Part shown: positions 6,337 through 33,921 of the stretch, piece by piece
Numbering within the stretch: the stretch's first letter is position 1
How the letters are laid out: each line of letters starts with the position of its first letter
Source of the DNA: a virus
Lineage: Duplodnaviria > Caudoviricetes
Virus record (IMG/VR): IMGVR_UViG_3300043567_000458
Direction: 5' to 3' (one strand)
DNA: 64,000 nucleotides
Translations under genes and position numbers: made by a program
The notes under the pieces: generated by a model
Seen by the model: only the letters and a program-made list of their open reading frames with translations
Told to the model about the DNA's origin: nothing
The model's database searches: none

Positions 6337-6389
6337 TTGACAGCGTGGCAAAACACTGCTATAATACACACATGTTAACAAGGAGCGAT

Positions 6390-6781: not shown

Positions 6782-6839
6782 CAGAACTGCCGTTTGGTGC
6801 TATAATAGACACTTACACTAACAAACATAGGAGCGAACT

Positions 6840-7543: not shown

Positions 7544-7632
7544 AAACAACAGGCCACAAACAGGGGTTGACAACTCCCCTGTTTGAGTGCATAATAGAGA
7601 CTATGTTAACAACACACACAGGAGCGAAATCC

Positions 7633-8733
7633 ATGCGTATCACACTAAGCCAAGGCCAATACGGCGCCAAAAGCAATCAGATCTATCCCGGCATTGAGCT
7701 GGATATGGTTGGGGACTTTGTCACAGAAGCCAACAACGGTTGGGAAGGCTACATCAAGGCTCGTTCAGGCTACAACATCAAGGGTGGCGGTGAGACCTGT
7801 AAGGTCTGGTGCAACCAAAGTGACATTGCTACCATGGCGGCTCCTGCTGGTGTTACCATGTTGCAGGCTCTGGCTAAACCCGCTAAGGCTGGCAAGAACG
7901 ATGCTACTGTTACAGACTTTAGCCAGGTCAAAGTGCCAGACTCTGCTGTCGCAGACGAAACTGATGAGCAGATCATTGAGCGCACTAGACTGCGCTTTGA
8001 GATCCTCAAGGACATGACCAAAGCAGTCAAGACTGGTGACGTTCGTGCTATGATTGTCACAGGCCCTCCAGGTGTGGGCAAGAGCTTTGGTGTTGAAGAA
8101 GTTCTAGCCAAAGATGACCTGTTCGATCTCATGGGACAGCGCAAGCCCAAGTATGAGATCGTCAAGGGTGCTATGAGTGCCATTGGCCTGTATAGCAAGC
8201 TCTACAAATACAGTGATCCCAAGAACATCATTGTGTTCGATGACTGCGACAGCATTCTTTTGGACGACGTTGCACTTAACATTCTCAAGGCCGCTTTGGA
8301 CACTTCAAAGAAGCGTACCATTTCGTGGAACACTGACAGCCGTGTGCTACGCTCAGAAGGAGTGCCTGACAAGTTTGATTTCAAGGGCGGTGCTATCTTT
8401 ATCACCAACTTGAAGTTTGAGAATGTTCGCTCTAAGAAACTGCAGGAGCACTTGGCGGCATTGGAGTCACGCTGTCACTTCATCGATCTGCGCATGGACA
8501 CAGACCGTGAGAAGGTTCTGCGTATCAAGCAGATCGTCAAAGACGGCATGTTGGACTCCTATGAGCTTGAGGATGTTGCTAAGGACGAGATCGTGGACTT
8601 CATCCTTGAGAATCGTAGCCACATGCGAGAGCTGAGCCTGCGAACTGTTTTGAAGTGTGCAGACTTGAAGAAGAGCTTCCCTACTAACTGGCAGAACATG
8701 GCCAAGGTCACTGTTATGAAGGGCATGGCCTAA
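7633..8733 (+). CDS. AAA+ family ATPase
   Basis: Walker A GPPGVGKS, Walker B IIVFDDCD, SRC motif; AGGAGCGAA RBS before ATG 7633. Confidence 0.85.
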   Translation: MRITLSQGQYGAKSNQIYPGIELDMVGDFVTEANNGWEGYIKARSGYNIKGGGETCKVWCNQSDIATMAAPAGVTMLQALAKPAKAGKNDATVTDFSQVKVPDSAVADETDEQIIERTRLRFEILKDMTKAVKTGDVRAMIVTGPPGVGKSFGVEEVLAKDDLFDLMGQRKPKYEIVKGAMSAIGLYSKLYKYSDPKNIIVFDDCDSILLDDVALNILKAALDTSKKRTISWNTDSRVLRSEGVPDKFDFKGGAIFITNLKFENVRSKKLQEHLAALESRCHFIDLRMDTDREKVLRIKQIVKDGMLDSYELEDVAKDEIVDFILENRSHMRELSLRTVLKCADLKKSFPTNWQNMAKVTVMKGMA

Positions 8734-8734
8734 T

Positions 8735-8950
8735 ATGAGTGAGTGCCAATACATAGGGTCAGAGCAGACCAAGTGGCCCTACACTATGTGTGGACAAAAG
8801 AATCTTGAGGGCAAGAGCTATTGTGCAGATCACTATTGGGTGGTCTACAAGAAAGGAAGCTCTAACCTCAAGACCAACACCAAGGCCATTGATGCAGAGA
8901 TCGCAGAGCTGAAACGGCTACAAGAACTCGAGGAGATTGAAAATGTTTGA
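8735..8950 (+). CDS. Small Cys/His-containing protein (possible Zn-binding)
   Basis: C4, MCG and YCADH residues; coiled-coil tail. Confidence 0.6.
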   Translation: MSECQYIGSEQTKWPYTMCGQKNLEGKSYCADHYWVVYKKGSSNLKTNTKAIDAEIAELKRLQELEEIENV

Positions 8951-9143: not shown

Positions 9144-9221
9144 GCTTGACCTTAGATCAGCGTTCTGTTATTATAATAAAACGCTGATGAAGTTCAGCTC
9201 AACAACAAAGGAAACTTAAAC

Positions 9222-9491
9222 ATGAAACGTTTCAATCCAGAAACAAAGACTTTCAAGGTCTTCAACGCACTCTACAATGGTGCAGCTCTTACAGCAGCTC
9301 AAGCTCGTAAAATGGGTGTAGGCAACCTGTCAGCAGAAGTCAGCCGCATCAAGCAGAATGGTTATGCTGTTTATGCTAACCAACGCACAGCAGGCAATGG
9401 CGTGACTGTCACAGAATACGTGATGGGCCAGCCAAGCCGTGAAATCGTTGCTCTAGGCTACAAGGCCAAGGCATTGGGCATCACTCTTTAA
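9222..9491 (+). CDS. Putative winged helix-turn-helix DNA-binding protein
   Basis: LTAAQARKMGVGNLSAEVSRIKQNGYAVY pattern; AAGGA RBS; followed by hairpins and a terminator. Confidence 0.6.
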   Translation: MKRFNPETKTFKVFNALYNGAALTAAQARKMGVGNLSAEVSRIKQNGYAVYANQRTAGNGVTVTEYVMGQPSREIVALGYKAKALGITL

Positions 9492-9536
9492 TTAGGGTTT
9501 CAAAGACAAGCCGATTCGCTCCCGGGGCGTCTTTGG

Positions 9537-9570
9537 AGGGTGTTGTGTAAAAGCAACACCCTTTTTCTTT
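9537..9570 (+). terminator. Intrinsic terminator
   Basis: AGGGTGTTG/CAACACCCT stem followed by a T-rich tract. Confidence 0.8.
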
Positions 9571-9650
9571 GGCCGGCACTCTCCAAAAGAGGTTGACAGA
9601 TTGGATAAATGATAGTATACTAGCATCATAGTAAGAACTTAGGAGCGAGT

Positions 9651-10280
9651 ATGCAATTCACAGCAGATCAAGTATGGGGTGCCGCGGTAGCTGCAGATCG
9701 TATCAACGGGGGCTATCTCAAAGAGCCTGTATACGCTCAAAACCTAGATGTGATCGAGAAGCAGGCCAACAAGCAGATGGTCAAAGATTGGCTCCGCAGC
9801 AACTCCTTCTCGCTGGTTACAGCTGCAGATATCGAGAGGGGTCGTGAGGTTCGCAACTACTTCAACGGCTTTCTACTCAAAGAGATCGCAGGCAAGATCA
9901 ACGACTTTGAACGTCAGGCCCTGAAGATCGCCCAAAAGGATGAGTTCACAGGTCGCGATATGTTTGATTTCGCTGTGGTCTCATGCTTGCCAGCTGCTAT
10001 GCTGCGCGATCAAGCCAAGAACCAACTCACAACTGAGATCAGGTTCAGCACCCAGCTTGTTGCTGCTGTTGGTGATCGCATCCAGGGAGACATCGAAGTG
10101 ATCAAATGCTACTGGAACCAGAACTATGGCAAGTGGCGTGTCACGGCCCGTATGGGTGAGAGCTTTGTGGACTTTTGGGCTTCTGAGGAGTTTAAGGGCA
10201 CAGTCAGCATCAAAGCCAAAGTCAAAGCCCAGCGTGGCGATAATACAACACAGTTGAATTATGTGAAAATCGTAGGTTGA
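9651..10280 (+). CDS. Hypothetical protein (possible C-terminal OB-fold)
   Basis: 209 aa; own promoter and AGGAGCGA RBS; beta-rich C-terminus ending TQLNYVKI. Confidence 0.8.
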   Translation: MQFTADQVWGAAVAADRINGGYLKEPVYAQNLDVIEKQANKQMVKDWLRSNSFSLVTAADIERGREVRNYFNGFLLKEIAGKINDFERQALKIAQKDEFTGRDMFDFAVVSCLPAAMLRDQAKNQLTTEIRFSTQLVAAVGDRIQGDIEVIKCYWNQNYGKWRVTARMGESFVDFWASEEFKGTVSIKAKVKAQRGDNTTQLNYVKIVG

Positions 10281-10356
10281 CAACTGAGCAGATTGGTGTT
10301 ATACTTATGATACTGAGAGATTAATTGTTTTAACCGTTTTTAACTAGCGAGGTCTT

Positions 10357-11442
10357 ATGTCAAAGCAAACTGATATTTCCGTCCGTCAAGTAGGCCCTAA
10401 GGGTGCTATGAAGGCGATCCGTAAGGCGATTCAAACTCGTCGTCCTACATTCCTGTGGGGCCCTCCCGGCATTGGCAAGAGTGATGTTGTCAAGCAGATC
10501 GGCGAGCAGGCAGGCCGTGAAGTGGTTGACGTTCGACTGGCCCTGTGGGAACCCACAGACATCAAGGGTATCCCCTACTACAATGCTGATCAGGGCAAGA
10601 TGGTCTGGGCTCCTCCCAGCGAACTGCCTACAGACCCAGAGAGCACCGCAATCATCTTCTTGGATGAGTTGAACTCCGCTCCCCCAGCCGTGCAAGCCGC
10701 GGCCTATCAGTTGATCCTGAACCGCCGTGTAGGCACATACAAATTGCCTGCAGGTGTTGACGTGGTTGCCGCCGGTAACCGTGAAGGTGACCGTGGTGTG
10801 ACATATCGTATGCCAGCTCCGTTGGCTAACCGTTTCGTCCACTTGGAGATGAAGGTAGACTTTGATGACTTCCAAGACTGGGCTACGCTCAACAAGGTGC
10901 ATCCAGAGGTCTTGGGTTATGTGGGTTTTGCCAAGCAAGACTTGTATGACTTTGATCCTAAGAGCCCTTCAAAGTCATTCGCAACTCCACGCTCTTGGGT
11001 GTTCGTCAGCGAACTCCTGCAGGACGATGACTGCGACAACGACACACTGGCCACCCTGATCGCTGGTGCGGTTGGTGATGGCTTGGCTACCAAGTTTATG
11101 GCTCACCGTAAGATTGCAGGACGCTTGCCTAAGGCAGAGGACATCCTCAGCGGTAAGGTCAAGGACCTGCAGATCAAAGAAGTGTCAGCCATGTATTCAT
11201 TGACCGTGTCTTTGTGCTATGAGTTGAAAGACCAAGCAGAGAAGAAGGCCAAGGGTTGGGATGGTATGGCAGACTGCTTCTTCCGCTACATGATGGACAA
11301 TTTCCCAACTGAGTTGGTTGTGATGGGTGCCAAGACTGCACTTACCAATTATGACTTGCCTTTGGATGCAACGAAGATGAAGAGCTTCGATGAGTTCCAC
11401 AAGCGTTTCGGTAAGTATGTTCTCAGTGCTATGGAGAATTAA
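10357..11442 (+). CDS. MoxR-like AAA+ ATPase
   Basis: WGPPGIGKS, IIFLDELN, AAGNR, PLANRF motifs; adjacent to a vWA protein. Confidence 0.88.
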   Translation: MSKQTDISVRQVGPKGAMKAIRKAIQTRRPTFLWGPPGIGKSDVVKQIGEQAGREVVDVRLALWEPTDIKGIPYYNADQGKMVWAPPSELPTDPESTAIIFLDELNSAPPAVQAAAYQLILNRRVGTYKLPAGVDVVAAGNREGDRGVTYRMPAPLANRFVHLEMKVDFDDFQDWATLNKVHPEVLGYVGFAKQDLYDFDPKSPSKSFATPRSWVFVSELLQDDDCDNDTLATLIAGAVGDGLATKFMAHRKIAGRLPKAEDILSGKVKDLQIKEVSAMYSLTVSLCYELKDQAEKKAKGWDGMADCFFRYMMDNFPTELVVMGAKTALTNYDLPLDATKMKSFDEFHKRFGKYVLSAMEN

Positions 11443-11459
11443 GACCTCGCCCATAGCAA

Positions 11460-11497
11460 GGGCGGGAGCTTCTCAGAGTTGCCCGCCCACCTTTTTT
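11460..11497 (+). terminator. Intrinsic terminator
   Basis: GGGCGGG...CCCGCCC stem followed by a T run. Confidence 0.65.
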
Positions 11498-11553
11498 GGT
11501 TGACAGGTGTGTAAATAGATGCTATAATATACACATACTAAGGAGAGCGACAC

Positions 11554-12759
11554 ATGGACCCAATCGTAGAGAAACTAACAACTGCACGAGTAGGACTGCT
11601 ACTCAAAGCGCCTTTCTTTGGCAACATGGCCACTCGTATGCGTTTGATCCAAAGCGACGACTGGTGCCCGACTGCGGCCACTAACGGTCGTGACTTTATG
11701 TATAACACAGAGTTCGTCAAGAAGCTCAGTGTTAAGAAACTAGAGTTCCTCTTTGCACATGAGATCTGTCATGCTATCTTTGATCACTTTGGTCGTTGCG
11801 GTAGCAGAGATCGTATGCTGGCGAACATCGCACAAGACTACGCTGTCAACCAGATCCTTGTAGACGAACGCATTGGTGAGAAGATCACTGAAGTTAAGAT
11901 CTGCTATGATCCAAAGTATCGCGGCATGGCTTGGGAAGAGATCTACGATCAATTGTATGAGCAGGCAGAGAAGATCCCTATGGATCAATTGCTCAAGCAA
12001 TTGGGCGATCTCTTAGACGAGCACATCAAAGAAGAAGAAGGTGCTGGTGCTGGCGGCGACAAGACCAAAGACGGCAAGGGCAAGCCTAGCCTTACCAAAG
12101 AAGAAGCAGAAAAGATCAAGCAAGAGGTCAAAGACGCAATGATCCAAAGTGCCGCGGCCGCAGGTGCAGGCAAGACTCCTGCAGGCATCATGCGTATGAT
12201 CAAGAACATGACTGAGCCTAAGATGGACTGGCGCCAGTTGGTGCAACAAGAGATCCAAAGCATCGTTCGCAACGACTACTCCTTTCAGCGTGTGAATCGC
12301 AAGAGTATGCACTCAGGTGCCATACTGCCGGGCATGAAAGAAGCAACTACTATCGACGTGGCAATCAGCATTGATATGTCAGGTTCAATTGGTGACGAAG
12401 ATGCAACTGCATTCCTCAGCGAGATCAAAGGCATCATGGATCAGTATGAGGACTTCCGCATTAACTTGTGGTGCTTTGACACAGACATCTACAACTGGAA
12501 GACCATCACACACGACGAAGGTCACGAGTTAGAAGAGTATGAACCACAGGGTGGCGGTGGCACAGACTTTGAAGTCAATTGGACATTCATGGAAGAGAAC
12601 GGTATCCAGCCCAAGAAGTTTATTATGTTCACAGACGGCTACCCATGCGGTGGTTGGGGTGACGAGGACTACTGCGATACAATCTTTATCGTCAAAGGCA
12701 ATACACAGGCCAACGCACCGTTTGGTCAGACTGTGATCTATGAGAAGGAGACTGCATGA
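11554..12759 (+). CDS. Metallopeptidase-like + vWA domain protein (DUF2201-type), MoxR partner
   Basis: HEICH (HExxH) in the N-terminal domain; MIDAS DMSGS, GGGGTDF and FTDG in the C-terminal vWA domain. Confidence 0.88.
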   Translation: MDPIVEKLTTARVGLLLKAPFFGNMATRMRLIQSDDWCPTAATNGRDFMYNTEFVKKLSVKKLEFLFAHEICHAIFDHFGRCGSRDRMLANIAQDYAVNQILVDERIGEKITEVKICYDPKYRGMAWEEIYDQLYEQAEKIPMDQLLKQLGDLLDEHIKEEEGAGAGGDKTKDGKGKPSLTKEEAEKIKQEVKDAMIQSAAAAGAGKTPAGIMRMIKNMTEPKMDWRQLVQQEIQSIVRNDYSFQRVNRKSMHSGAILPGMKEATTIDVAISIDMSGSIGDEDATAFLSEIKGIMDQYEDFRINLWCFDTDIYNWKTITHDEGHELEEYEPQGGGGTDFEVNWTFMEENGIQPKKFIMFTDGYPCGGWGDEDYCDTIFIVKGNTQANAPFGQTVIYEKETA

Positions 12760-12947
12760 GCCCTACCACACCTAGGTTCCCTAACGATCCTATGGACTAT
12801 GATCTACCACCACACTCAGACTGAAGTGCCAGGGGTTGTGGCACAAATGCCACAGGCCCCGCTGCTTACGTGTGCGTGTAATCTAGGTGTTGACATCTGG
12901 ATAGATTGGTGTTATAATATAGACATATTAACAAGGAAGGAGCGGTA

Positions 12948-13097
12948 ATGATAGAACTGATTTTAGCTTTCGTAGCAGGTATGATTGTAATGGACTTTAT
13001 GTATGCCTGGCGCATGGGCATTCCTCAGATGTTGTGGTATCGTTTCAAACATCGCAATGATCCTAAACCTAACTTTCGTGAATGGAGCGAAGACTAA
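12948..13097 (+). CDS. Small membrane peptide (49 aa; not in ORF track)
   Basis: Hand-translated MIELILAFVAGMIVMDFMYAW...; own promoter and AGGAGCGG RBS. Confidence 0.7.
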   Translation: MIELILAFVAGMIVMDFMYAWRMGIPQMLWYRFKHRNDPKPNFREWSED

Positions 13098-13222
13098 TGA
13101 AAATCATTTTGGCATTCATCGCTGGTATGTTCGTGGCCACAGTGGGAATCTCTGGTGTAGCATCTGCTGTAGATAAGGCCGTTGGTAAAACTCAAGAAGT
13201 AATGAAGGAGACTGTTAAATGA
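13097..13222 (+). CDS. Small membrane/secreted peptide (41 aa; not in ORF track)
   Basis: Hand-translated MKIILAFIAGMFVATVGISG...; GGAGCGAA RBS; TAATG coupling. Confidence 0.65.
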   Translation: MKIILAFIAGMFVATVGISGVASAVDKAVGKTQEVMKETVK

Positions 13223-13398
13223 GCGCAATGAGTAATCTGGATTACGATATCCAAGAACTATACATCGAAGGCCACAGTGCCAAGATGATCGCTGCTTTGT
13301 TAGAGTGCCCTGTAGAGCTAGTCTTAGGTGCACTTGAGACCATGGGGGTTAAGGATGTAGAGGACGAAGAGATCTATAGTCCCTACCAAGGAGCATGA
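13219..13398 (+). CDS. Small acidic protein (59 aa; not in ORF track)
   Basis: Hand-translated MSAMSNLDYDIQELYIEGHSAKMIAALLECPVELV...; ATGA overlaps at both ends. Confidence 0.6.
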   Translation: MSAMSNLDYDIQELYIEGHSAKMIAALLECPVELVLGALETMGVKDVEDEEIYSPYQGA

Positions 13399-13721
13399 GT
13401 AGATTAGAATACCTAGCAAGGCCCTTGGTGGCCTTTGATCCTTACAACAAAGATCACAGACGATACTACGCAGAGTTCCTAGAAAGTGGCGGTTGGGGTT
13501 CATGCCCTGTGCGTTTTATCTGCCCCGAGGACTCGGGCAGTGACCTTACTGTTATGATCAAGAACAGCTTGATCTACTTTTACATTGAACGTGAGTTTGG
13601 TGGTGGGAAGCTGGCTAAAGCACGATCAGCTGACCTCAAGGAGCAGGCAGACCGCAGGTACAAGGAAGCGGGACAACTGCGCAAAGAGGCACAGGCTCTG
13701 ATGAAACCCAGGCGCGGATAG
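13395..13721 (+). CDS. Hypothetical protein
   Basis: 108 aa; AAGGAG RBS. Confidence 0.75.
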   Translation: MSRLEYLARPLVAFDPYNKDHRRYYAEFLESGGWGSCPVRFICPEDSGSDLTVMIKNSLIYFYIEREFGGGKLAKARSADLKEQADRRYKEAGQLRKEAQALMKPRRG

Positions 13722-13772
13722 GGTCTTTCCCAAGTGGTTGACAATGTGGTGAAACCTTGCTATAATACAAGC

Positions 13773-14222
13773 ATGAACACACAATACAACACCACATACG
13801 AATTTGACTTCACAGGCAAAATCCAATTTGGAGATATGCCTGTGGAGCAACTGCACACTCTGTTTCAAGACGGTCGTGTGGCCAGCAAGTTCTTGGAGCA
13901 CACGATTCCTACGTGGTTCCCGGACTTGGAGTTCGTGGACGCCAAGGGCTATGATCACGTGAGTAAGACCACTGGACGCAAGTTTGATCTCAAAGGCTTT
14001 ACCAAAGGTGGAGCCAGCTATGCCCCTAGCACCATGTTAGGGGCGGGTCGTAAGATCGACACAGTGGTGTTACACGAGCACGCCGAGAGCATCGACTACA
14101 TCATCAGCGATGTTACAGAGTTCCCCAAGGTTCGAGTAGTGTTCAAACAGGGCACTGATCTAGTGCGTGATTATCCCAGCGGCAAGATTCCGCTCAAAGC
14201 CCGCAAAACACTTTTTGGTTGA
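13773..14222 (+). CDS. Putative PD-(D/E)xK restriction-endonuclease-fold protein
   Basis: E..., GYD-H-V...KFDLK pattern; ATG 6 nt after TATAAT. Confidence 0.5.
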   Translation: MNTQYNTTYEFDFTGKIQFGDMPVEQLHTLFQDGRVASKFLEHTIPTWFPDLEFVDAKGYDHVSKTTGRKFDLKGFTKGGASYAPSTMLGAGRKIDTVVLHEHAESIDYIISDVTEFPKVRVVFKQGTDLVRDYPSGKIPLKARKTLFG

Positions 14223-14276
14223 CAGATTGGATCATCGGTGTTATACTATAGGTATAGTGAATAACAAGGAGCGAAG

Positions 14277-14543
14277 ATGTATATTAAACTAGAATCTGAC
14301 ACAGAACAAGAGCGTATCATAAAGATCCTCAAGGGATGGCAGTTCGATCGCAAGCAACACGGTTGCCTGTTTGATCGTGGCAGTGCTGATTCCTACTACG
14401 GTCGATCACGTGATCCACACTACGGCGGTGTGGGAGGCGACTCAGGTCTGCGTGTTGATCAGTTGTCTGAGGAAGAAGTAGCAGAGTATCAAAGAGGCTA
14501 CACCCACAACGAACTCTACGGTGACAAGAAAGACTACCGATGA
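14277..14543 (+). CDS. Hypothetical early protein
   Basis: Own promoter and AGGAGCGAA RBS. Confidence 0.8.
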   Translation: MYIKLESDTEQERIIKILKGWQFDRKQHGCLFDRGSADSYYGRSRDPHYGGVGGDSGLRVDQLSEEEVAEYQRGYTHNELYGDKKDYR

Positions 14544-14770
14544 AGAAGTTCACATTTTGGCGCAATGCCATCATATCGGAAATCTACGTGGTCGACGCAG
14601 CAACTGAAGAAGAAGCTCGGGAGATGCTCCAGGCAGGGGAAGTGGAAGTGTTCTCAGAAGAGTGGATGGATTGGGCAACAGACGATTTCGAGCTTGAGCA
14701 CGTGGAGATCATAGACCCTTTGTACCGTATGGTTAAAGACTACGAATCGGTTGACAAATTGAGCAACTGA
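14540..14770 (+). CDS. Hypothetical acidic protein
   Basis: ATGA coupling. Confidence 0.7.
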   Translation: MKKFTFWRNAIISEIYVVDAATEEEAREMLQAGEVEVFSEEWMDWATDDFELEHVEIIDPLYRMVKDYESVDKLSN

Positions 14771-14804
14771 TAGTATAATATACACATACTAAGGAGAGCG
14801 AGTA

Positions 14805-15014
14805 ATGGGTTATAAGACATTTGAATTCGATACAATGCGTGACAAGTATGGTCCACGCCCAGGGTTAGAAGGCCCATTCAACTTCCTTGGTAGGGTTTTG
14901 TATTACGATCCCAAAGAGGGCAAGTATTGGGATCCACGCACAGACTTCTATGTTGAGCAGAGTGAGATGGACACACTCAACCGGAACCTGATGAATCTTT
15001 TAACAACATCTTAA
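14805..15014 (+). CDS. Hypothetical early protein
   Basis: Own promoter and AGGAGAGCGA RBS; LYYDPKEGKYWDP motif. Confidence 0.8.
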   Translation: MGYKTFEFDTMRDKYGPRPGLEGPFNFLGRVLYYDPKEGKYWDPRTDFYVEQSEMDTLNRNLMNLLTTS

Positions 15015-15023
15015 GGAGCGAAC

Positions 15024-15641
15024 ATGCCTAATTGGTGCAACAACAACCTAACACTGGAACACGAAGACCCAGCAATGATCAAGCGTGCCGCAGATGCACT
15101 GTTGCGTGGAGAGTTCTTGAATGAGTTCATTCCAGTGCCAACGGATCTGCAGATCGTTGCAGGACGATTGGGTGACGGTGACGAGCAGAGAGAACTAGAA
15201 CGCAAGACCGCTGAGAATCTAGAGAAATACGGTTATGGCAACTGGTATGACTTCTGTGTAGGCGAGTGGGGAACCAAATGGGATGTAGGCTGTGAAGGAA
15301 GCACTGATGTGCATCCAGATGGCAAGATGCTACACACCTACTTTGATTCAGCCTGGGCTCCTCCTGTGAATGCCTATGTGAAGTTAGAAGAGTTGGGCTT
15401 CAAGGTCAACGCTATGTATTACGAATCAGGTATGGCTTTTGCTGGTGCCTACGGTGATGGCAATGATGAAGAGATCAGCCTCGAAGGCATGAGTGCCGAT
15501 GATATCGAACAGCACTATCCAGAGATCAACGAAGCATTTGGCATTGCAGAAAGCATCCGGGAATACGAGGCTGAGAATGAAGAAGAGCTCACTGCTTGGA
15601 TCAAGGATGGTGCCGAGAAGAAGGCGCTGATCGCAGAATGA
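15024..15641 (+). CDS. DUF1281/YubB-like ferredoxin-fold protein
   Basis: MPNWC start, WGTKWD and FDSAWAPP motifs; AGGAGCGAA RBS. Confidence 0.7.
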   Translation: MPNWCNNNLTLEHEDPAMIKRAADALLRGEFLNEFIPVPTDLQIVAGRLGDGDEQRELERKTAENLEKYGYGNWYDFCVGEWGTKWDVGCEGSTDVHPDGKMLHTYFDSAWAPPVNAYVKLEELGFKVNAMYYESGMAFAGAYGDGNDEEISLEGMSADDIEQHYPEINEAFGIAESIREYEAENEEELTAWIKDGAEKKALIAE

Positions 15642-15931
15642 AAGTAATCAAACTTGATCGACGCTATAGTGGCTACGGTGTTTGGACACACAGAACCAAT
15701 AGCGGTCATTGGTACGGTGAAGAAGCTCGTGCCCAAGGACTCATGGCCTTCTACGAAATGCGATGCTACATGACGCAGATGAATGGCCCAGGCTGTTTCA
15801 TTCACGAAGCGTGGGCTATCAAGAAGGCGGGTCGGGCAGTGCCGGAATGGGCCTGGGACACAGACGGCAATGTGTTCTTTCGTGACTCGGCCCTGGTTAA
15901 CTTTACCTTGGCAAAGGATAGATGGTTATGA
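15638..15931 (+). CDS. Hypothetical protein
   Basis: ATGA-coupled start MKVIKLDRR. Confidence 0.7.
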   Translation: MKVIKLDRRYSGYGVWTHRTNSGHWYGEEARAQGLMAFYEMRCYMTQMNGPGCFIHEAWAIKKAGRAVPEWAWDTDGNVFFRDSALVNFTLAKDRWL

Positions 15932-16104
15932 GAGAATATCAATTTGTTTTCAACGTGGTTTGTGCTGGGAACGGCACACCCGATATGGCTAGAGTCGAAG
16001 AAATGATCGACCTTAGCATGCAGGATCTGGTCTTTGACGATGAGTTCATCACCGCCCTTGACGAGAAAGAGAGTGTCACTATTCAGGTTAATTTGGTAAA
16101 ATGA
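15922..16104 (+). CDS. Hypothetical protein
   Basis: 60 aa; overlaps the upstream gene end. Confidence 0.6.
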   Translation: MVMREYQFVFNVVCAGNGTPDMARVEEMIDLSMQDLVFDDEFITALDEKESVTIQVNLVK

Positions 16105-16192
16105 ATGGTTGACTGTTTGAATTTGGTATGCTATACTAATAACATGCTGAATGATTGGCATATTTTTAACACACACAGAAAGAGGTAACATC

Positions 16193-16504
16193 ATGGCAAC
16201 AGATAAAAAGTTTGCAGTAGCAGGCGTTTCAACATACGAAGGCAAGACCAAGGTTCGTTTCGCCAACGACACCATGCGTGTCAAGATCCTGGCCAAGAAC
16301 GGTCACACAGACGTGCAGCTCGTGGATCTTCCACATGAGATGACCAAAGCGGAGATCGGTGCGCACATGGTGAGCACAGGCTTTGGCAAGGGCAACGCAG
16401 CTATCGAAGCTGCTGTAGCCTACGTAGTCAAGAAGAACCCTTCGGCCACAGCTGCCAAGGTAACTACAACTACTGTCGCGAAGGCAGAAGCTGTTGCTGA
16501 ATAA
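16193..16504 (+). CDS. Hypothetical protein, probably highly expressed
   Basis: Own promoter, GAGG RBS, downstream hairpin and terminator. Confidence 0.8.
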   Translation: MATDKKFAVAGVSTYEGKTKVRFANDTMRVKILAKNGHTDVQLVDLPHEMTKAEIGAHMVSTGFGKGNAAIEAAVAYVVKKNPSATAAKVTTTTVAKAEAVAE

Positions 16505-16537
16505 CCCGATTCGCTCTCGGTAATCAGCAACCTTGAT

Positions 16538-16568
16538 AGACCCTAGTAACCCTAGGGTCTTTTTTTTT
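16538..16568 (+). terminator. Intrinsic terminator
   Basis: AGACCCTAG/CTAGGGTCT stem followed by a T run. Confidence 0.85.
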
Positions 16569-16623
16569 GGCTTGACATTTTGGACAACTTGTGCTATAAT
16601 ACATTTTTAACAGAAAGTAAAAG

Positions 16624-16770
16624 ATGACAAGCAAACAAGCTAAACAAAAAATCGACAGCTTAATGTTGCAACTGCAAGACATGCTAGAACAAGTAGGACT
16701 AGACGAACACGAGCGCATACAAAATGCTTTTAATGCACTTGCAATAGAACTAGACGACGTTGTCTATTAA
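16624..16770 (+). CDS. Small helical protein (48 aa; not in ORF track)
   Basis: Hand-translated MTSKQAKQKIDSLMLQLQDMLEQ...; own promoter at 16572. Confidence 0.6.
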   Translation: MTSKQAKQKIDSLMLQLQDMLEQVGLDEHERIQNAFNALAIELDDVVY

Positions 16771-18764: not shown

Positions 18765-18862
18765 CCCTACTCGATCTAGGGTTATATTTGAATTTGGTTG
18801 ACAACCCAGCCAATCTGTCATATAATACACACATAGCAACAAACAAACAGTAGGAGCGATAT

Positions 18863-19069: not shown

Positions 19070-19150
19070 TCCAATAACCCGGGTGGTTGACGGGTTATCC
19101 AAAAGGTGTTATAATACACACATAGTAACAAAGCAATAGGAGCGAACCAA

Positions 19151-19537: not shown

Positions 19538-19650
19538 TTGCCAACGTGTCAACCCTACCACTAGACCCTGCAACTCGCCTGGGCACTTCGTGGGGTTGAC
19601 ATCGAGGCTTTTTGGTTGTATAATCAACACATAGCAACAAAGGAGCGGCA

Positions 19651-19761
19651 ATGGTTAAACTGATTGGATGGATCGCTGTTACATGGTTCTTGTTCCACTT
19701 TGGCATTGCCCAGGCTCTCCTGCTGTGGACTGCAGGCATAGGCACTATCATATTTGGTTGA
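19651..19761 (+). CDS. Small membrane peptide (36 aa; not in ORF track)
   Basis: Hand-translated MVKLIGWIAVTWFLFHFGIAQALLLWTAGIGTIIFG; own promoter and AGGAGCGG RBS. Confidence 0.65.
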   Translation: MVKLIGWIAVTWFLFHFGIAQALLLWTAGIGTIIFG

Positions 19762-19811
19762 CAGTTTGGTAAAACGGTAGTATAATTAACACATACACAC
19801 AAAGGACACAT

Positions 19812-20159
19812 ATGACTATCACAGCAACTCCAGAGCAGATCCCCATGATCGTAGCCGAAGCTGAATTCGCTGCCCACGCCGCAGCTGATCAATACTTTCG
19901 CCAAGAGCTGGGCGGCAGGGATCAATTCGCATGCGGCTTTGCCTGGGTGAAGATCTACGGTGTCAAGGGCAACACCAAGTTGGGCCGGGCCTTGAAGGCC
20001 GCCGGGATCCGTCCTTCATACTCAGGCGGCTTAGAGATGTGGAATCCATCCAAGTTTGGATGCCAGAACGTGGACACGCTGGAAGCAGGTGCTAGAGCAG
20101 CAGCCGGTGTGTTTGAGAAGTATGGCTTTGAGGCCTATGCGGGAAGTAGGTTGGATTAA
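19812..20159 (+). CDS. Conserved phage hypothetical protein (CGFAWV motif)
   Basis: Own promoter; AAGGA RBS. Confidence 0.8.
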   Translation: MTITATPEQIPMIVAEAEFAAHAAADQYFRQELGGRDQFACGFAWVKIYGVKGNTKLGRALKAAGIRPSYSGGLEMWNPSKFGCQNVDTLEAGARAAAGVFEKYGFEAYAGSRLD

Positions 20160-33343: not shown

Positions 33344-33921
33344 TAACTATACCCGTAACTGATCTGCTCACAGATCAAATTCATCTGCACCACAATAGCT
33401 ACAGCATAGGCAGTGGCATGCGATTGTTTGAAGAAATATTCTTCATTGTCGGGTTTCGTCCAAACTTCCGTCATCACCGTGGTCCATTCTTTCCCAATCA
33501 GATAACGTTTCGCTGGTCGGATCATCGCTAAAACGGCTGCTAGTTGTTCGATAGATTTTGGTTCCATCTTTCTTAGTATAGATCCATGACCGTTCACATG
33601 AAACAGATTCTGGATAAACTCTTCGTCTTGTAGTAGATCCCATAATGGCTCAGTCTCCATGAGTTGAATAAGGTGCGCCTCATCTCGAACACCTTTGTAA
33701 ATGCCAACATTTAAAAAATCAATCTTGAAATATTCTTCGGCTGCTGCATGATCGTATGGTATACTGCACACAGCTTTCTCAGCATTCATTGGAACACTAT
33801 GTAAATACACACCGGTGTTGTGTTTGGTCAGAGTTTCGTTGTCAACACGGCTGGCTGGCACATGCTTGAATAACTTTAGAGCATGGGCTCTGTCTACAAA
33901 GTCTATGTCGATATCAGGCAT
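33343..33921 (-). CDS. Miniature DNA polymerase III alpha (DnaE)-like protein
   Basis: PDIDIDF, FKIDFL, LAAVLAMIRP and FKQSHATAYA match C-family polymerase motifs in only 192 aa. Confidence 0.75.
   Translation of the reverse strand: MPDIDIDFVDRAHALKLFKHVPASRVDNETLTKHNTGVYLHSVPMNAEKAVCSIPYDHAAAEEYFKIDFLNVGIYKGVRDEAHLIQLMETEPLWDLLQDEEFIQNLFHVNGHGSILRKMEPKSIEQLAAVLAMIRPAKRYLIGKEWTTVMTEVWTKPDNEEYFFKQSHATAYAVAIVVQMNLICEQISYGYS

Follow-up and report, generated by a model that had tools for sequence, protein, structure and literature searches.

The 3'UTR hairpins of a freshwater jumbo phage carry conserved loops complementary to the ribosome-site tag of its early genes

Why do two mRNAs of a lake phage end in hairpins whose loops are complementary to a motif at the ribosome-binding sites of its early genes? 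This question is raised by the 64,000-nt stretch of IMG/VR record IMGVR_UViG_3300043567_000458 (hereafter, the window, meaning the whole stretch of DNA that was analyzed). Its source is an uncultured jumbo lake phage, which belongs to a large, abundant group of freshwater T4-like jumbo phages, and the nearest record shares 25% of k-mers with it. Between 4.7 and 20.2 kb, the window has some 20 near-consensus promoters in an array, and most of these precede a short leader. The two hairpins lie within this region, in the 3' untranslated regions (3'UTRs) of two genes, gene A (9222..9491) and gene B (16193..16504). All features of the window described below are on the + strand.

The core of each hairpin is a 15-mer, CCGATTCGCTCCCGG at 9511-9525 and CCGATTCGCTCTCGG at 16506-16520, exactly where the initial annotation of this DNA had placed them. 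A search at up to two mismatches found just these two sites in the window, with a chance expectation of 0.05. Each 15-mer lies no more than 15-20 nt past a stop codon (9491 and 16504) and 5' of an intrinsic terminator. Hairpin A (9502..9534) consists of an outer stem (9502-9507/9529-9534), an inner stem CCG/CGG (9511-9513/9523-9525) and a 9-nt loop, AUUCGCUCC, at 9514-9522 with a closing A.C mismatch. Hairpin B (16495..16529) consists of an outer stem (16495-16500/16524-16529), which overlaps the last codons and the stop of gene B, an inner stem CCGA/UCGG (16506-16509/16517-16520) and a 7-nt loop, UUCGCUC, at 16510-16516. The outer stems differ by site, with AAAGAC/GUCUUU at site A and UGCUGA/UCAGCA at site B. 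The usual loop is 9 nt long (A-UUCGCUC-C with the A.C closing mismatch), and in hairpin B of the window the final C is changed to U, which gives a closing A-U pair and leaves 7 nt in the loop. Hairpin A is followed by a terminator at 9535..9573, with a 12-bp stem and a U-run (terminator-like hairpin 9535-9564), and hairpin B by one at 16538..16569, with a 9-bp stem and U9 (terminator-like hairpin 16538-16560). Both genes have sigma70-like promoters, TTGACC-17-TATTAT with a TG extension at 9146..9174 for gene A and TTGACT-17-TATACT at 16109..16137 for gene B, confirming that each 15-mer stands between the stop of a promoter-driven gene and a U-run terminator. As in 3'UTR-derived regulatory RNAs, the hairpins are located between the stop codon and the intrinsic terminator of their own mRNA, a layout that is the same in relatives, and they carry a conserved seed complementary to candidate targets.

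The motif on the other side of this complementarity is a tag at the ribosome sites of early genes. Nine copies of AGGAGCGA are present in the window, where 1.1 would be expected; eight of them are located 2-5 nt before a start codon, and the remaining one (28821) has no such position. Counting related forms, GAGCGA is present at the ribosome sites of 10 genes, and two more have the weaker tag GGAGCGG, so the earlier figure of about 13 tagged early genes is fair. The form AGGAGCGA stands at 6381..6388 (gene 6390), at 9641..9648 (gene 9651, directly downstream of hairpin A) and at 18852..18859 (gene 18863), and the form GAGAGCGA at 11543..11550 (gene 11554) and 14794..14801 (gene 14805). The form AGGAGCGAA is found at 6829..6837 (gene 6840), 7620..7628 (gene 7633, which encodes an NrdC.10-like AAA ATPase), 14267..14275 (gene 14277), 15014..15022 (gene 15024, the second in its operon) and 19138..19146 (gene 19151). 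The GGAGCGG tags are at 12939..12945 (gene 12948) and 19642..19648 (gene 19651). Among the relatives, 275 distinct leaders contain GAGCGA at 0-7 nt upstream of ATG, with 3 nt as the commonest spacing; 193 of these leaders have AGGAGCGA, and 167 continue with A. The tag is therefore a Shine-Dalgarno (SD) core, GGAG, with a private 3' extension, CGA(A), and to our knowledge this extension has no match to the canonical 16S tail. Genes A and B themselves lack the tag, as had been noted, and have the ribosome sites AAAGGAAA and AAGAGG, respectively; their homologues in four relatives (L198, L212, L232 and G009) are likewise untagged.

The loop motif UUCGCUCC is the exact complement of GGAGCGAA. The predicted duplexes of loop A with the tagged leaders range from -9.8 to -14.3 kcal/mol, and those with the eight AGGAGCGA leaders from -12.4 to -14.3 kcal/mol. 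In comparison, the predicted values are -6.5 to -10.2 kcal/mol for the tagged leaders with the canonical 16S tail, and -2 to -3 kcal/mol for loop A with the untagged leaders of genes A and B. The initial annotation had gone further and matched the two loops to exactly two leader variants. The complementarity itself, as a relation under selection, is borne out by the stem covariation and by a joint switch of tag and loop in a sister clade, both described below, but the variant matching is not: only the window and its three closest relatives (L200, L201 and L209) have a CUCUC form of loop B, and GGAGAGCGA leaders are widespread in phages with a CUCCC B loop.

Relatives were drawn from IMG/VR (gene A, n = 263, with 80 loci fetched; gene B, n = 33). 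The results show that the loop core UCGCUCC is unchanged in more than 100 related contigs, while both stems, inner and outer, vary with compensating changes, which is what the proposed covariation check in related phages had looked for. An identical core, CCGAUUCGCUCCCGG, with varying flanks, follows gene A at some 70 of the 80 loci, the hairpin and its loop core are present 3' of gene B in 33/33 loci, and UCGCUC is invariant in 27 distinct hairpins. Around this one loop the inner stems read CCG/CGG, CCGA/UCGG, UUGG/CCAA, UCAG/CUGA, UCG/CGA (L230), CCUAGG/CCUAGG or GCUAG/CUAGC. RNAalifold, applied to 17 site-B sequences, predicts two helices, of 6 bp (outer) and 3 bp (inner), with double changes at 8 of the 9 pairs. 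The covariation score, based on pair counts, was reached by none of 500 shuffles, and the paired fraction, 79-91% as aligned, is 18-61% after a shift of the 3' partner. The hairpins are real structures, conserved at the RNA level. A pattern scan of IMG/VR was unusable as a chance background, since many single matches later proved to be true relatives. The association of the GGAGCGA tag with UCGCUCC loops, often as two-hairpin arrays, is also seen in three further genomes (G004, G006 and G007) and in a dozen loci anchored on the ATPase gene. Many relatives have an additional, unstructured copy of the loop sequence (the anti-tag) right after the stop of gene A. The intrinsic terminator hairpin of some relatives holds the anti-tag in its own loop (L310:4891-4990, G002 19870-19905 and G003 33550-33590). 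The GGGG(C/U) after hairpin A (9526-9529 in the window) is conserved in relatives too and can pair with the CGCUC of the loop; this alternative fold would hide the anti-tag and could be a switch.

A sister clade carries a different pair of motifs. In the complete 357,559-bp sister phage G002, the tag of the early leaders is (G)AGGGCA(A); of 55 promoter leaders, 11 contain it, often in two copies. At 19750-19905 of this genome, directly 3' of its NrdC.10-like ATPase gene, stands an array of four hairpins whose loops read GCCCUC/UGCCCU, and the last of them is the terminator; no UCGCUCC hairpin was found 3' of its gene A homologue. The AGGGCA tag also occurs together with GCCCU(C) loops in other members of this clade (G003, L304, L316 and L325). 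A contingency of hairpins over whole loci was too noisy, and a table of unique 3'UTRs was used in its place. Counted irrespective of relatedness, TCGCTC is present in 72/101 and TGCCCT in 3/101 of the 3'UTRs at loci with the GAGCGA tag, and in 0/4 and 3/4, respectively, at loci with the AGGGCA tag. Tag and loop switched together between the clades. That two clades differing in motif should each have an exact complement of 7-8 nt by coincidence is very unlikely. Nearly all early transcripts of G002 (L234:11600-23400) bear two tags, one about 8 nt past the -10 box (AUAGGGCAAAC) and the other at the ribosome site. The four-hairpin array of this phage could bind multivalently, beyond the ribosome site alone.

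Other tag states were found at further loci. Three relatives (G009, L340 and L393) combine GGAGCA leaders with UUGCUCC 3' of the gene A orthologue, and in G009 this UUGCUCC is part of a hairpin (stem, 8 bp; loop, 7 nt). The third tag state (GGAGCA/UUGCUCC) is only suggestive, with a loose coupling at fine scale. A second 3'UTR hairpin, CCGGGG-GUAGUGU-CCCGG, is conserved outside the window in L338:2190-2215, L340, L345, L350 and about 25 other loci, between the unstructured anti-tag copy and the next hairpin. The complement of its loop, ACACUA, precedes AGGAGC in 42% of leaders where the hairpin is present versus 10% elsewhere, and this co-occurrence fits RNA-RNA pairing. A phage of another clade (G008, IMGVR_UViG_3300013094_000017) has yet another tag, ACGGAGAAAC (AACGGAGAAAC), in 13 of 24 promoter leaders between 200 and 259 kb, and no convincing anti-tag hairpin was found within the 59 kb examined.

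Taken together, we think it reasonably probable, judging from sequence, that the 3'UTR hairpin loops base-pair in trans with the tagged ribosome sites of early mRNAs and thereby tune or lower their translation. The mRNAs of genes A and B end with the hairpin followed by the intrinsic terminator, and the 7-9-nt loop exposes (A)UUCGCUC(C), which would pair with GGAGCGA(A) on about 12 early genes of the same phage. Such pairing would cover the ribosome-binding site, so translation of the tagged early mRNAs would most likely be lowered, and perhaps their stability as well. Repression or tuning is the most likely effect because covering the SD sequence should block 30S binding, and the same sign is suggested by analogy with the staphylococcal RNAIII/Rsa and the cuckoo/CcsR RNAs (PMC4615179, PMC8034643). 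The effect would grow as the hairpin RNAs accumulate, and the private extension would confine it to the early class of the phage itself. The active molecule may be the whole mRNA or a processed 3' fragment. A kissing-loop form of the interaction was considered as well, as some leaders fold with GAGCGAA in a hairpin loop (for example, CAUAG...CUAUG around 6831); it was rejected, because stems of at least 3 bp occur in 18/275 leaders versus about 10.6 with random partners and were not counted as commoner.

Several observations weigh against pairing in trans as the function of the hairpins. The hairpin genes share their promoter type with the candidate targets, and the sequence therefore gives no evident mechanism of timing. 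The loop at site A is partly pairable with a conserved GGGGCG 3' of it, and the predicted unpaired probability of the central loop bases is 0.4-0.6. In G002, the gene that carries the array is itself tagged, and exemption of the carrier is therefore not general. The 3'UTR counts of tag and loop ignore relatedness, and the clear switch may be a single evolutionary event. In addition, three relatives (L341, L352 and L353) have UCGCUCC 3' of gene A, yet their leaders are mostly GGAGCA. Contigs of relatives with about 90% identity cover genes A and B in lake/freshwater RNA libraries (n = 4), and one of them ends at 16515, within loop B, beside adapter sequence; RNA ends, strand and level are not readable from these contigs and DNA is possibly present, and neither observation was used as support.

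Could the complementarity be without function, a leftover of an inverted duplication of a ribosome-site segment or a product of chance? Any C-rich loop that contains CUCC matches GGAG, but the match runs 3-4 nt past the SD core in each of two clades, and more than 100 diverged loci have kept the loop unchanged despite drift in the flanks; we regard this explanation as scarcely credible. It is also highly improbable that the motif works as an operator in double-stranded DNA, with one protein, perhaps the product of gene A, binding GGAGCGAA either way round, both just downstream of early promoters and 3' of genes A and B. Tag and loop are indeed one site, inverted, in duplex DNA, and gene A has a weak winged-helix match. 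However, the compensating stem changes at the 3'UTR copies point to a folded single strand, the distance of the tag is fixed to the start codon (mostly 2-5 nt) and not to the promoter, and the tag is also present on an internal operon gene (15014). The initial annotation had offered decoy sites for a motif-binding protein as an alternative, and this proposal fails on the orientation of the loop, which is the complement and not a copy of the motif; a protein specific for single-stranded GGAGCGAA would fail to recognize the complementary sequence.

The hairpin might instead be a protein-binding RNA element that serves antitermination (nut/boxB-like), stability or processing, with a functionless complementarity to the leaders. 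The layout recalls cro-nutR-tR1 of lambda, in which a small helix-turn-helix (HTH) gene is followed by a 15-nt hairpin and a terminator. The 14/15 identity of the two phage 15-mers is paralleled by lambda nutL and nutR, whose boxB elements are two near-identical 15-nt hairpins lying kb apart, one of them behind the small HTH gene and before the terminator. The invariant loop would suit this explanation too, as protein sites often have one. The lambda boxB hairpin, though, which is accompanied by an upstream boxA, has a 5-nt GNRA-like loop that is bound by N and has no complementarity to leader motifs, whereas the phage loop has 7-9 nt. The CGCUC of the phage loop resembles the start of boxA, and this likeness fails to explain the GCCCUC clade. 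A protein site would also leave unexplained why, in two differing clades, the loop exactly complements 7-8 nt of the most frequent leader motif, and why unstructured extra copies follow stops; the latter fit a pairing seed better than a protein-bound hairpin. Readthrough would be needless because the gene downstream of each terminator has a promoter of its own, and most terminators of the region have no such hairpin. We judge this explanation to be quite unlikely. A positive or protective effect of real pairing, which would shield GGAG from a RegB-like nuclease, stabilize the mRNA or open an inhibitory leader fold, is unlikely as well, although the pairing evidence is silent on the sign. A covered SD sequence normally blocks initiation, and the leaders are short (20-35 nt), with no excess of inhibitory leader hairpins found. 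Because RegB/S1 reads an extended GGAG site on the early mRNAs of T4 (PMC3014915), one can conceive of a nuclease to which a duplex would bar access; the RegB family (PF10715), however, was unmatched in G002 (complete), G006 and G007, though control genomes were equally silent.

Pairing of the loops with tagged ribosome sites would have parallels in known systems. The cuckoo/CcsR small RNAs (sRNAs) of alphaproteobacteria (RSs0680 and ar14) consist of modular hairpins with covarying, variable stems and one conserved, C-rich, anti-SD-like loop (PMC4615179, PMC8034643). In Rhodobacter, they are located in the 3'UTR of a small protein gene and are released by processing (PMC4615179, PMC8034643). 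Arrays of 2-4 hairpins are found in this family, and G002 and the L297-type relatives likewise have hairpin arrays. The two systems differ in several respects. The cuckoo/CcsR loop motif is CCUCCUCCC, repeated in each of 2-4 adjacent hairpins (PMC4615179), whereas the phage motif is UUCGCUCC and the hairpins of the window are single. The cuckoo/CcsR RNAs are cellular, lie beside a DUF1127 gene (PMC8034643) and target host mRNAs, whereas the phage element is viral and its candidate targets are the phage's own early genes; the phage match also includes a clade-specific extension past the SD core, unlike that of cuckoo/CcsR. No DUF1127 neighbor was found, as gene A has a weak HTH_39 match and gene B no real Pfam match. 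Searching 9400-16700 with cmscan at E values up to 5 gave no match to the Rfam models ar14 and RSs0680 and just three sub-threshold matches (NsiR1, mmgR/suhB and a snoRNA model). Because loop motif, neighboring gene and Rfam model all differ, the phage element is not a member of the cuckoo family. A second parallel is provided by Staphylococcus aureus sRNAs with C-rich (UCCC) loops (RNAIII hairpins and Rsa RNAs), which, according to the summary in PMC4615179, pair through the loop with the ribosome-binding sites of several targets and block initiation. Those loops match the generic SD sequence, whereas the phage loop matches a private tag, which should limit the effect to a single temporal class of viral mRNAs. 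By analogy, the phage circuit would work like the cuckoo/CcsR and staphylococcal C-rich-loop sRNAs without belonging to either family. In T4, early mRNAs carry the extended GGAG site GGAGRAYARAA, which is read by RegB/S1, and early translation is switched off (PMC3014915). The reader of the tag is a protein nuclease in T4, whereas the proposed reader here is an RNA loop.

The carrier genes give few further clues. Gene A encodes 89 aa with a weak winged-helix (HTH_39-like) match and has no match among cultured phages. Gene B encodes a conserved protein of 103 aa without a known family or fold: its AlphaFold2 model, of moderate confidence (predicted local distance difference test score 72.7), has no PDB fold match at E<=0.001, and the protein atlas returned only its own viral clusters. 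The N-terminal half of the gene B product is highly conserved, with 34 invariant residues across 16 diverse homologues. At the DNA level, the window had no megablast match to cultured phages, and the sole blastn match is an ATPase at 10357-11442, in PA5oct-like phages; cultured phages do match at the protein level, with PA5oct-like phages closest. The NrdC.10-like gene at 7633-8733 encodes a 366-aa AAA ATPase that is a homologue of T4 NrdC.10 (1306 phage records) and shares 48% identity with its counterpart in Pseudomonas phage PA5oct. Many relatives have an anti-tag hairpin array directly 3' of this gene, and the window has a small Cys-rich gene (8735-8950) in place of the array. No hairpin array was found 3' of the NrdC.10-like ATPase gene of PA5oct. 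The PA5oct record contains an RNA-seq-based 'putative lncRNA' (long noncoding RNA) about 2 kb upstream of that gene (L418:3040-3658).

A more general possibility, which we put forward tentatively, is that these phages encode a lock-and-key translation code, in which a private SD extension tags the early regulon and 3'UTR anti-tag hairpins time early shut-off. The pairs would be clade specific (GGAGCGAA/UUCGCUCC, GAGGGCA/UGCCCUC and possibly ACACUA/GUAGUGU) and orthogonal to host mRNAs and to other phages. A full-text literature search found no description of such a phage circuit, and a private tag/anti-tag code in a virus would be novel. This phage group, should the pairing prove functional, controls a whole temporal gene class by RNA, where T4 uses the protein nuclease RegB. 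The clade-specific tag/anti-tag pairs would then be natural orthogonal translation switches, and the early regulons of uncultured phages would be recognizable from sequence alone.

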